Shown: positions 58,197-59,450 of the stretch, piece after piece
Numbering within the stretch: the first letter of the stretch is position 1
Layout of the letters: every line of letters starts with the position of its first letter
Origin: Escherichia coli
GTDB lineage: Bacteria > Pseudomonadota > Gammaproteobacteria > Enterobacterales > Enterobacteriaceae
DNA length: 64,000 nucleotides
Direction: 5' to 3' (one strand)
Assembly: GCF_030384885.1 (NCBI RefSeq)
Contig: NZ_CP128613.1
The notes under the pieces: model-generated
Databases searched by the model: none
Told to the model about the DNA's origin: nothing
Seen by the model: the letters and a program-made list of their open reading frames with translations, nothing else
Program-made: the position numbers and the translations under genes

Positions 58197-59450
58197 TTAA
58201 GACTGCTGATAAGACGTTGCCGTTGTCCGGCACTCCGGGCAGATAAACGCGTAAATCATCCCTTCGCCATATTGTTCAATATCGGCATAATCCAGTTGCG
58301 CAAGAAACATCATTGTGTGGGAACATTGCGGACAGAGAGGATATTCCGCGTCCTGAATCCAGGTTGGATGCCCGCCAAGTTGCGAGAAAGAGACAGGTAA
58401 AAATGGGTCTGCGGCAAATAACGGTGACCTAAGGTTTCCCTGTCTCATGCTGTTTACAGGGAGTCGACGCCATTCCGATACATCATCCGGCAGCCAGGCA
58501 GGCGGTGCAGACAAATGAGCGTTACCCCGTGAGTCTATGTAACCGAAAATGGTGCTATAGGCGGTGCAACATTCACACGTCACGACGCGAAACCTGCCTT
58601 TATCGCTAAGACCCGTTGCCTTCAGGTCAACGTCGAAAAGATTTGTTAGGGGCAATGCGCAATTTGGACAGGTATCGCTGCGTTCATCAACAACACGCAA
58701 AGCTTCGCAACACCCGGTGCTTTTCATCTCCAGATGAAAACAGTGAGGAAAATAGAGATTACGTCTCTGCCCTTCAGCGGTTAACTCCCAACCGGCCTCA
58801 TGCACATATTCTTCTGGCGCGATGTAAAGTGAACTGCGCCACAGCGGCGGGTTATTGCGCCAGTAGGCAAAACGTTCAACAACAACGTCATCCCCAATCC
58901 ATGCCAGACATTGCAGAATACAATTTCTGTTTTCTGCATCATCCTCAACCCGTTCTAACAGCGTATCGCGAACATCCGCTGGGGCGCGGTGGAAAGGCAG
59001 AGGAGAATAAGCGTCTAAATCATCATAAGAGATCCACTCTCGTAAATATGCATCCAGATTTGCCTGGGTAAACGCCGCCAGACAAAGACAAATCTCCTGA
59101 GCGTGTTCATATTCACCAGACGCAAAGCGTTCTGTGGCGCAATCAGCCATCAGCTGCGCTTGATCGGCAGTCAGTTGTTGATACAGGGCATCGGTGGGAA
59201 CGGGGCAGGGAGTCCAGTCGATTAACGCATCGAATTTCCGTGGCTGGTGAACTAATTTCAGCATGGCAATCGGATCGCTTAGCCCAGCAAACACATTCAC
59301 GGTCTTTTTATTTTTCCTGATATATTCATCGTGCTCACGCTGCTGTTGTGCCTGAACGCAGGGCATACAGTATCCGTCAGTACGCGCAGCGGTTTCCGGA
59401 AGAATGGTTGATGTACAAGCGGGGCTTTTACAGGGAATACGGTGAGTCAT
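58197..59450 (-). CDS. Hypothetical cysteine-rich protein with C-terminal DUF1963 (YwqG-like) domain
   Basis: 417 aa; ATG with AGGAGC 7 nt upstream; C-terminus LGGHPTWIQ...CPQCSHTMMFLAQLD...GEGMIYAFICPEC resembles the DUF1963 signature (GGxPxWxQ ... GDxGxLYFFxC) as I recall it; several additional CxxC pairs. Confidence 0.6.
   Translation of the reverse strand: MTHRIPCKSPACTSTILPETAARTDGYCMPCVQAQQQREHDEYIRKNKKTVNVFAGLSDPIAMLKLVHQPRKFDALIDWTPCPVPTDALYQQLTADQAQLMADCATERFASGEYEHAQEICLCLAAFTQANLDAYLREWISYDDLDAYSPLPFHRAPADVRDTLLERVEDDAENRNCILQCLAWIGDDVVVERFAYWRNNPPLWRSSLYIAPEEYVHEAGWELTAEGQRRNLYFPHCFHLEMKSTGCCEALRVVDERSDTCPNCALPLTNLFDVDLKATGLSDKGRFRVVTCECCTAYSTIFGYIDSRGNAHLSAPPAWLPDDVSEWRRLPVNSMRQGNLRSPLFAADPFLPVSFSQLGGHPTWIQDAEYPLCPQCSHTMMFLAQLDYADIEQYGEGMIYAFICPECRTTATSYQQS

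Follow-up and report, generated by a model that had tools for sequence, protein, structure and literature searches.

At the core of the essential eukaryotic chaperones PDCD2 and Tsr4 lies the TYPP domain, which binds their client; for bacterial TYPP/DUF1963 proteins, we know of none whose function has been established by experiment. Human PDCD2 no longer binds its client uS5 when either of the TYPP repeats carries substitutions, and this binding takes place co-translationally; the client segment of PDCD2 and Tsr4 is the N-terminal extension of uS5, which is specific to eukaryotes and absent from bacteria (PMC7736825). A computational study of 2014 (Burroughs & Aravind, Front Genet 5:424, PMC4275035) described a three-part architecture that consists of a C4 zinc finger, an α-helical domain and a TYPP domain. 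SuFu, SUKH, Imm-Ank and Imm-HEAT are listed immunity families (PMC3482391).

We analyzed a 64,000-nucleotide stretch of Escherichia coli DNA (contig NZ_CP128613.1), here called the window, in which a cysteine-rich 417-aa protein with a DUF1963/YwqG-like C-terminus and possibly metal-binding CxxC pairs had been predicted. The gene and the parts of its product are located as follows.

58197..59450, minus strand: complete TYPP (DUF1963-superfamily) gene (open reading frame list, full-length homologues, AlphaFold model)
59458..59463, minus strand: Shine-Dalgarno sequence AAGGAG, 7 nt 5' of the ATG of the TYPP gene (read from the sequence)
59301..59450, minus strand: N-terminal C4 zinc ribbon and long helix, residues 1–50 (alignment, secondary structure of the model)
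58800..59285, minus strand: all-helical HEAT/ARM-like solenoid, residues 56–217
58536..58799, minus strand: TYPP repeat 1, residues 218–305 (alignment, model, hhalign against repeat 2)
58386..58535, minus strand: variable insert between the repeats, residues 306–355 (lowest model confidence; holds a 3-aa deletion)
58200..58385, minus strand: TYPP repeat 2, residues 356–417 (alignment, Pfam DUF1963 match)

The open reading frame is a genuine gene. Its predicted extent was borne out: it encodes 417 aa on the minus strand, starts with ATG behind an AAGGAG and ends with a stop codon at 58197–58199. Full-length homologues show 38–93% identity, and the orthologues are named DUF1963 by PGAP. Compared with the 420-aa form of other E. 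coli, the protein of the window has a 3-aa in-frame deletion after residue 315. It is acidic (pI 4.9), and 22 of its 417 residues (5.3%) are cysteines. A simple consensus scan of the 138-bp gap by the gene revealed no promoter-like or terminator-like site on the minus strand. Scans with NCBIfam, PADLOC and PHROGs gave no useful match for the protein. With tblastn, nothing was found in 50,697 phage records, and 72,556 plasmid records yielded a single marginal match. The Salmonella locus tags STM2452 and STM2453, which were a guess, led to no relevant literature.

In a Pfam scan of the protein, residues 356–403 matched positions 1–51 of the 216 positions of Pfam PF09234 (DUF1963) with an i-Evalue of 5.7e-5 and 24 bits. 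The predicted C-terminal DUF1963 signature is thus significant, but the match covers only 48 residues, and the domain is wider than the C-terminus. Repeat 2 was the only stretch matched by the Pfam model, and the match was limited to model positions 1–51 in all the members tested. With an alignment of the TYPP part only, DUF1963 matched 8 of 14 members at E<=1e-3, and a threshold of E<=0.1 raised the number to 12. The only match in the PDB profile search was sub-threshold (E 0.1), between repeat 2 and the zinc ribbon of RPC10/TFIIS, and was taken as generic zinc-ribbon similarity.

The AlphaFold model of the protein was confident (pLDDT 92, pTM 0.86) and displayed, from the N-terminus on, a zinc ribbon, a helical domain of HEAT-like form and a β domain made of two repeats. 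In the model, the TYPP domain has the YwqG fold, in which two stacked β-sheets are formed from two repeats. An hhalign comparison of residues 259–304 with residues 371–416 (probability 75%, E 2.5e-5) pointed to an internal duplication. The TYPP domain spans approximately residues 218–417 as two homologous repeats, which is more than the C-terminus; the mid-protein CxxC pairs are therefore part of repeat 1. Repeat 1 has an invariant A219-G220-W221, which counts as the degenerate counterpart of the GGxP motif, and repeat 2 contains the invariant S356-Q-x-G-G-x-P-x-W-x-Q-D367, Q385 and a terminal Q415-Q416 that is followed by S or T. The insert between the repeats was modelled with a pLDDT of 78–79 at residues 311–330. 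Residues 1–50 are basic (pI 8.8) and the helical domain is acidic (pI 4.4). The best Foldseek match of the zinc-ribbon part was the zinc ribbon of NrdR (46 columns, probability 0.47).

To describe conservation, we used an alignment of 25 sequences of 39–82% identity from Enterobacteriaceae, Chitinimonas, Acidobacteriota, Clostridium and Paenibacillus. All the aligned family sequences (25/25) have a pI of 4.6–6.5, and a nucleic-acid-binding role was rejected on the ground of this acidity of the whole family. The three C4 clusters account for 12 cysteines, of which 11 are invariant and one, C407, is present in at least 90% of the sequences, and the clusters are kept in homologues from Proteobacteria to Firmicutes. 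This conservation lies far beyond chance. At the N-terminus, where the original prediction had placed CxxC pairs in the motif CKSPAC...CMPC, the motif is present and C28-x2-C31 is a CxxC pair, but the first pair, C7-x4-C12, is Cx4C; all four of these cysteines are invariant. The two pairs proposed for the middle of the protein, CPNC (C261-x2-C264) and CECC (C292-x2-C295), were both found and make up the predicted zinc site of repeat 1. The first reading had missed a third site, in repeat 2, where C373-x2-C376 (CPQC) is joined by C404-x2-C407 (CPEC). The CxxC pairs are placed in β-hairpin turns of the confident model, and their conservation fits structural zinc sites, as the suggestion of metal binding had anticipated. 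Taken together, the alignment and the model indicate that the protein is a member of the TYPP/DUF1963 superfamily with three predicted zinc sites and a bacterial relative of PDCD2 and Tsr4.

Outside the cysteines, G359-G360-x-P362, Q366, Q385 and Q415-Q416 are invariant across several phyla in the 25 sequences, and so are R161, D187, R341, Q357, D367, Y370 and Y400. Almost every full-length member closes with YQQ followed by S or T. Apart from the GGxP residues, this is an unusually large invariant set of polar and aromatic residues which, together with the strict conservation of length and termini and a solo-gene context that fits an autonomous activity, could mean that the TYPP pocket is an active site, in which a substrate peptide or protein would be modified or processed. 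Burroughs and Aravind raised catalysis as a ‘radical’ alternative but saw ‘little enzymological precedent’ for it (PMC4275035). No catalytic nucleophile or metal triad is evident in the protein, the C4 sites in hairpin turns account for all the invariant cysteines, there is no structural similarity to known enzyme folds, and binding is how the relatives that have been characterised, PDCD2 and Tsr4, do their work. We therefore regard an enzymatic function as improbable.

The explanation that we prefer is that the protein is a protein-binding, chaperone-like module which serves a single client as its dedicated chaperone or adaptor, and we consider the case for the whole of this explanation to be evenly balanced. 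Peptide binding and the chaperone-like role are inferred by homology with PDCD2 and Tsr4. The protein, which is acidic, would be soluble and cytoplasmic, and it combines the zinc ribbon and the HEAT-like α-solenoid with a TYPP domain of the DUF1963/YwqG/PDCD2/Tsr4 fold, in which each of the two β repeats would be pinned by a CxxC...CxxC zinc site. The mechanism would most likely be non-enzymatic: a segment of another protein, extended or unstructured, would be gripped by the TYPP pocket, which is lined by GGxPxWxQD, Q385 and the C-terminal QQ; a further surface for binding would come from the solenoid, and the zinc sites would serve structure alone. Since no conserved neighbour encodes a client, the client may be a conserved protein of the host or one that enters it from outside. 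The gene would have resided downstream of amiA-hemF in Enterobacteriaceae for a long time and have been lost by most E. coli.

Several observations speak against the chaperone view. The binding function is drawn entirely from distant eukaryotic homologues, and the uS5 extension that these recognise does not occur in bacteria. The many invariant polar residues would suit an active site equally well. A chaperone of a core protein would be expected to persist, yet the gene is sporadic and lost from >99% of E. coli. Foldseek gave no significant structural match in the PDB, and a search of the PDB with the sequence profile of the family did not retrieve 1PV5, the structure of B. subtilis YwqG.

On the downstream side of the TYPP gene, the window contains the following genes.

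57472..58137, minus strand: orphan 221-aa open reading frame of low GC, context only; starts 59 bp past the TYPP stop codon
56637..57437, plus strand: orphan Tli3-family T6SS immunity gene, 266 aa (Pfam Tli3 PF24316, E 1.2e-15; PGAP name)
55819..56640, plus strand: Sel1-like repeat gene, a pseudogene here, with its reading frame broken by TAA at 56173–56175

The position of the 221-aa open reading frame, 59 bp downstream on the same strand, was confirmed, and the TYPP gene could on this account form a two-gene module with it, or else be an accessory of an LXG/T7SS-type toxin locus. The latter idea derives from B. subtilis, where ywqG presumably lies upstream of the LXG toxin operon ywqHIJKL. 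We know of no T7SS in E. coli, and no LXG, WXG100, Rhs or other toxin was found among the annotated neighbours. The 221-aa protein had only 8 homologue clusters, of which the named ones are all Escherichia, and no match in Pfam, NCBIfam, PADLOC or PHROGs. Its gene was missing in 26 of the 28 TYPP-bearing E. coli, where ypfK takes its place; it bore no similarity to the ypfK-like gene that holds its place in other strains or to any open reading frame of 80 loci surrounding family members. In one locus (L014), its homologue is placed elsewhere, directly after hemF, and a gene for a 1149-aa SNF2 helicase lies between it and the TYPP gene. The 221-aa open reading frame thus does not appear to be a fixed partner of the TYPP gene. 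We judge the toxin-locus or two-gene reading to be highly improbable and, as far as sequence data decide, already refuted for the TYPP family.

In Enterobacteriaceae, the gene is found downstream of amiA-hemF, usually beside ypfK, and Klebsiella, E. albertii, E. coli and Salmonella share the syntenic order hemF-TYPP-ypfK. The gene is common in Salmonella. It was carried by 28 of 5426 complete E. coli genomes, and in K-12 the gap from hemF to eutR is only 5 bp. The Tli3 gene of the window is convergent with the TYPP gene and the 221-aa open reading frame. The block of Tli3, Sel1 and 221-aa genes looks like a later insertion, because its GC is low and ypfK is found on that side in other strains, and because two strains with a Sel1 stretch of 99.4% identity have TYPP proteins that differ at approximately 8% of the residues.

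The neighbourhood survey covered 80 species-level loci and about 10 others, with Pfam labels on about a dozen retrieved loci, and was supplemented by a pooled Pfam scan of 95 neighbour open reading frames of family members; the contigs of two distant members (P0231 and P0209) were too short to inform on context. The family has roughly 2500 members. The gene is sporadic, since the representatives of 100,044 species contain approximately 123 relatives, and the most frequent neighbour family occurred in at most 19 of the 80 loci. No LXG, WXG100, Rhs or other toxin family was recognised in the Pfam-labelled dozen loci or among the 95 pooled neighbours, and we found no support for a link to polymorphic-toxin loci, of the LXG kind or any other. 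In 16 Paenibacillus loci, a gene for an AlaX-like (tRNA_SAD) protein lies directly upstream; it was rejected as a partner since it is confined to one subclade and shared descent can explain it.

The search for toxin or immunity partners likewise gave no conserved partner, but it was rescued in part by 16 of the 80 loci, all from Bacillales (Paenibacillus, Lysinibacillus, Sporosarcina and Fontibacillus), where the gene belongs to arrays of closely packed genes on one strand, in an order that changes from species to species. The arrays comprise SUFU (PF05076), SMI1_KNR4/SUKH_6, Ank+DUF4274, DUF6138, DUF2625 and a second, short DUF1963 gene, and no recognisable toxin. The remaining 64 loci are not array-like and have transporters, regulators, glycosidases or an AlaX-like protein as neighbours, and the polyimmunity-array layout is also absent from most Enterobacteriaceae. 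The genes amiA-hemF, to which the gene is adjacent in Enterobacteriaceae, are housekeeping genes. By their gene content and layout the Bacillales arrays look like polyimmunity loci, which we treat as a lead, not as proof.

The lead is that the protein may be of an immunity type, pre-emptively binding and neutralising a toxin domain of a competitor in the manner of SUKH or SuFu, as an orphan that lacks a cognate toxin. The arrays show exactly the defining features of heterogeneous polyimmunity loci (PMC3482391), and tandem YwqG-like TYPP genes were seen in single operons by Burroughs and Aravind (PMC4275035). The protein is acidic, its distribution is patchy with presence/absence polymorphism, and in the window the gene lies beside a Sel1-like gene and an orphan T6SS immunity gene of the Tli3 family; the block that holds these appears, however, to have been inserted later, and the position by amiA-hemF is stable in Enterobacteriaceae. 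Moreover, most loci (64/80) are not array-like, no toxin gene was recognised beside any member examined, the Pfam Imm families did not match the protein, and a full-length identity of 38–50% with an invariant pocket across phyla would be unusual for co-evolution with diverse toxins. The immunity families and the TYPP superfamily were defined by the same authors, who did not call TYPP an immunity domain. On balance, we find an immunity function rather unlikely. The ‘GGxP’ motif with which Imm27 is described was taken as a coincidence, since no Pfam Imm family matched the protein. The broader proposition that family-2 TYPP proteins, and perhaps bacterial DUF1963 proteins generally, are an unrecognised toxin-neutralising class that would catch an effector peptide in the GGxP/Q pocket seems doubtful to us. 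It is based on context, namely the polyimmunity-like arrays at 16 of the 80 loci and the orphan Tli3 and Sel1 neighbours in the window. If it were true, bacterial conflict systems would be the source from which PDCD2 and Tsr4, like the descendants of SUKH and SuFu, had been recruited.

If the polyimmunity association holds, a new fold would be added to the immunity proteins and a conflict-system origin would be suggested for a ribosome-biogenesis factor; if it fails, the gene is an ordinary accessory gene already annotated DUF1963 by RefSeq. The E. coli/Salmonella family is compact, strongly conserved and confidently predicted, and it occurs in tractable hosts, which makes it a practical entry to what the bacterial TYPP domain binds.

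Compared with the SUKH, SuFu, Imm-Ank and Imm-HEAT immunity families of polymorphic toxin systems (Zhang et al. 2011, 2012), the TYPP protein is likewise soluble and acidic with protein-binding folds, and those superfamilies also have eukaryotic descendants. Heterogeneous, toxin-less, same-strand arrays are common to SUKH, SuFu, Imm-Ank and the TYPP gene in 16 Bacillales species. The TYPP protein differs in having no sequence or fold relationship to these families, in that most of its loci are not array-like, and in being far more conserved in sequence and length.

With B. subtilis YwqG (PDB 1PV5, PF09234), the protein shares the fold, and the Pfam model matches its repeat 2. YwqG is 261 aa long, shows 11% identity to the protein of the window and is not known to have the N-terminal zinc ribbon, the helical solenoid or the CxxC zinc sites.

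PDCD2, PDCD2L and Tsr4 belong to the same superfamily and share the two repeats and the GGxP, CxxC and Q motifs. Their TYPP domain is the client-binding element in PDCD2 and Tsr4 (PMC7736825) and the sole experimentally grounded model for the domain. PDCD2 has a MYND insertion and Tsr4 a low-complexity insert, and the Pfam scan and the model showed neither here; the N-terminal zinc ribbon and the HEAT-like domain are bacterial additions. The bacterial gene is dispensable and sporadic, whereas PDCD2 and Tsr4 are essential.

The protein fits the architecture of TYPP ‘prokaryotic family 2’. It shares with that family the C4 zinc finger, the uncharacterised α-helical domain and the TYPP domain, the GGxP motif, the conserved Q and a pair of CxxC motifs per repeat in two repeats, and a sporadic distribution in bacteria. 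The zinc finger in the 2014 paper is of the DksA/TraR type, whereas here Pfam zf-dskA_traR gave no match at E<=10 and an invariant C4 site is found, for which the NrdR zinc ribbon is the nearest structure at the low probability given above. Neither the polyimmunity-like context in Bacillales nor the hemF synteny is reported in that paper. Variants of the family that lack the zinc ribbon or carry an additional helical module suit the same family-2 description, and among the AFDB50 structural neighbours of the protein are Campylobacter showae proteins, a kind that Burroughs and Aravind took as seeds in 2014.

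The open reading frame of the original prediction was recovered as given: 58197-59450 on the minus strand encodes 417 aa from an ATG, and a 221-aa frame on the same strand starts 59 bp past its stop codon. The window is E. coli chromosome; its stretch 55700-59600 was 99.9% identical to strain 2013C-4282.

Features of the window around the TYPP gene
eutB, eutC, eutL, eutK and eutR: plus strand
55819-56640, plus strand: Sel1-like repeat gene, a single gene listed as two 'Sel1/TPR' ORFs (3144-3940 in L001, the locus of strain 2017-02-2CC)
56637-57437, plus strand: Tli3-family T6SS (lipase-immunity) gene, 266 aa (Pfam Tli3, E 1.2e-15)
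57472-58137, minus strand: 221-aa orphan, low GC, no family match
58197-59450, minus strand: TYPP gene
7 nt upstream of the TYPP ATG: AAGGAG, ribosome-binding site
beyond the eut genes and the TYPP region: hemF, amiA and their neighbours

The protein has a pI of 4.9 and contains 22 cysteines (5.3%). The CxxC pairs originally proposed to bind zinc are all present, but the first is Cx4C, and the list lacked a further set of two motifs, CPQC with CPEC, near the C-terminus. Three residues are absent after residue 315 (about nt 58505), where 2017-02-2CC has KNI and E. albertii QNV; they include an asparagine kept in at least 90% of the family, and the site is the variable insert separating the two TYPP repeats.

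A search of 5.8 billion proteins gave 181 matches. The 120 matches listed were 38-93% identical to the protein, mostly full-length (about 420 aa), and came from enterobacteria (E. coli, E. albertii, Citrobacter, Kluyvera, Phytobacter, Salmonella, Yokenella and Klebsiella, the Salmonella homologues including one cluster of 1074 sequences) as well as from Chitinimonas, Acidobacteriota, Clostridium and many Paenibacillus. When 1.84 billion cluster representatives were searched exhaustively with a profile, 2571 relatives passed E<=1e-3 and 517 passed E<=1e-30; some are shorter (about 370 aa) and lack the N-terminal zinc ribbon, and others are longer (about 510 aa), with an additional N-terminal helical module. 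In a 25-sequence alignment, C7, C12, C28, C31, C261, C264, C292, C295, C373, C376 and C404 were invariant and C407 at least 90% conserved. Also invariant were S356-Q-x-G-G-x-P-x-W-x-Q-D367, Q385 and the terminal Q415-Q416, which is followed by S or T.

The AlphaFold2 model built with this alignment was confident (pLDDT 92, pTM 0.86).

Regions of the AlphaFold2 model
residues 1-50: zinc ribbon, then a helix
residues about 56-217: all helical
residues 218-417: beta strands, with every CxxC in a hairpin turn

When residues 259-304 were compared with 371-416 by hhalign, they matched at E 2.5e-5. Thus, the beta domain is an internal duplication, and the cysteines originally described as 'mid-protein' belong to its first repeat. 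The predicted DUF1963 C-terminus was found by Pfam scan at E 5.7e-5, although the match was limited to residues 356-403 and to model positions 1-51 of 216; this partial match recurred in 8 of 14 diverse family members. Repeat 2 (residues 356-407; window 58230-58385) also displayed a sub-threshold likeness (E 0.1) to RPC10, an RNA polymerase III subunit, in its C-terminal zinc ribbon of the TFIIS type, and two family members touched Pfam Zn_ribbon_TFIIS (E about 4e-3), which is probably generic zinc-ribbon similarity. The TYPP superfamily, comprising Tsr4, YwqG, PDCD2L and PDCD2, was defined in 2014 by Burroughs & Aravind (PMC4275035), who labelled the zinc finger of their prokaryotic family 2 DksA/TraR; in our protein, Pfam gave no zf-dskA_traR match at E<=10, and the nearest structure to the finger was the NrdR zinc ribbon, at a probability of 0.47. 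Our protein belongs to this superfamily, as conservation, fold and repeats all match.

To our knowledge, PDCD2 and Tsr4 are the only TYPP proteins that have been studied experimentally. PDCD2 no longer binds its client uS5 when either TYPP repeat carries substitutions; it binds co-translationally, and in yeast the protein recognises a segment at the N-terminus that is unstructured (PMC7736825). The same paper notes that the clients of bacterial TYPP proteins must be different ones. Since the protein combines homology to PDCD2/Tsr4 with an acidic surface, a solenoid and invariant pocket motifs, we favour, with middling confidence, the reading that it is a binding module: it would bind a protein or peptide without catalysis, be stabilised by zinc, and serve as a chaperone or adaptor. 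Fold, repeats, conserved cysteines and motifs, and genomic contexts are shown by the analysis, whereas zinc binding, peptide binding and the biological role are inferred. A peptide-modifying enzyme, the one argument for which is the many invariant polar residues, seems very unlikely.

The original prediction also pointed to the LXG polymorphic-toxin locus in which YwqG sits in Bacillus. A scan that took a single genome for each of 100,044 species gave 123 relatives, and 80 loci, mostly from Paenibacillus, were retrieved. When their neighbouring ORFs were clustered, no family recurred in more than 19 of the 80 loci, the commonest being a GNAT acetyltransferase at variable distance, and no toxin gene was recognised among them; the Chitinimonas, Clostridium and Acidobacteriota loci were each unlike the others. 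When 95 neighbours were pooled and scanned with Pfam, most were housekeeping genes. The gene had no match in 50,697 phage records and one marginal match in 72,556 plasmid records, and the protein had none in PADLOC or PHROGs. Thus, the toxin-locus link is unsupported, and we consider an LXG locus, or a two-gene unit with the 221-aa frame, extremely improbable.

One Paenibacillus subclade has, in 16 loci, an AlaX-like tRNA_SAD (tRNA editing) gene of 392 aa directly upstream of the TYPP gene, on the same strand and 12-176 bp away, just before position 5001 or its equivalent (L038, L040, L044, L055, L057, L059, L062, L066, L069, L073, L075, L079, L080, L088, L090 and L094). This adjacency may simply reflect shared descent; it is of note in that eukaryotic TYPP proteins have a role related to translation.

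In 16 of the 80 loci, from Paenibacillus, Lysinibacillus, Sporosarcina and Fontibacillus, the TYPP gene lies inside tightly spaced same-strand arrays whose gene order is shuffled from species to species; the remaining 64 have no such array. Bacillales arrays of this kind were noted at L097 4308-16071, L098 3473-13079, L028, L030, L033, L041, L042, L045, L052, L053, L061, L067, L072 and L078. The arrays hold SUFU (PF05076), SMI1_KNR4/SUKH_6, Ank+DUF4274, DUF6138 and DUF2625 genes, a second, short DUF1963 gene, an AAA_33/HD and RNA-ligase pair, and several families without a Pfam match (about 125, 225 and 265 aa). SuFu, SUKH, Imm-Ank and Imm-HEAT are immunity families, and heterogeneous polyimmunity loci were defined by the same properties as these arrays (Zhang et al. 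2012, PMC3482391). By guilt by association inside one bacterial order, the arrays look like such loci, from which new immunity families might be defined. Together with the Tli3 neighbour in the window, they speak for an immunity-type neutraliser of incoming toxins; however, no toxin partner was recognised at the loci examined, the hemF synteny is stable and conservation is unusually strong, and we regard this role as rather unlikely. That TYPP is an immunity fold, with PDCD2/Tsr4 derived from bacterial conflict systems, we consider unlikely.

In K-12, 5 bp separate the hemF and eutR stop codons (4125-4131 in L099, the locus of this junction). Among 5426 complete E. coli genomes, only 28 carry the region, 26 with the order hemF, TYPP gene, 105-aa gene, eutR, and two with the window-type arrangement. 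The TYPP gene also follows amiA-hemF in Klebsiella, E. albertii, Salmonella and Superficieibacter, and since the same position is occupied there, we infer that it has long resided in enterobacteria and has been lost from most E. coli, and that it is not an island gained recently. The 105-aa product is 50% identical to that of a Klebsiella gene labelled YpfK (PF26378). This small membrane protein gene (105-109 aa; L002 2113-2430, L011 7365-7694, L003 137-466) follows the TYPP gene in E. coli, E. albertii and Klebsiella and precedes it in Salmonella, so that adjacency is kept and order is not. The junction (window 55736-59588) is a variable-gene hotspot, containing 5 bp in K-12, TYPP and ypfK in 26 genomes, TYPP and the 221-aa/Tli3/Sel1 block in two, and additionally an SNF2 helicase gene in one.

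In the window, this low-GC block (40% GC) takes the place of ypfK. The 221-aa orphan has eight homologue clusters in all, the named ones from Escherichia; in one locus (L014 6001-6672) its homologue directly follows hemF, and a convergent helicase gene (1149 aa, SNF2/DUF3670/DUF8276) stands between it and the TYPP gene. The Tli3 gene, with no effector gene nearby in the window, looks like an orphan immunity gene. The Sel1-like gene is broken by a TAA at 56173-56175, where 2017-02-2CC reads AAA; the lesion of 2017-02-2CC is a deletion of 1 bp at the site matching 56288. The lesions being different, the gene was inactivated twice, independently. At the DNA level, the two carrier strains share 99.4% identity across the Sel1 stretch, whereas between their TYPP proteins there are 32 differing positions (about 8%) and a 3-aa indel. 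This suggests that the block (55736-58196) and the TYPP gene (58197-59450) have separate histories, the block having been acquired or exchanged on its own.

We know of no earlier report of the polyimmunity-like Bacillales context or the hemF synteny, which are modest additions to what is known. RefSeq already names the E. coli protein DUF1963, and its architecture was published in 2014. By that architecture it fits family 2 of the superfamily; it is only a marginal member of the Pfam DUF1963 model as currently built, and it is not an orthologue of PDCD2/Tsr4.
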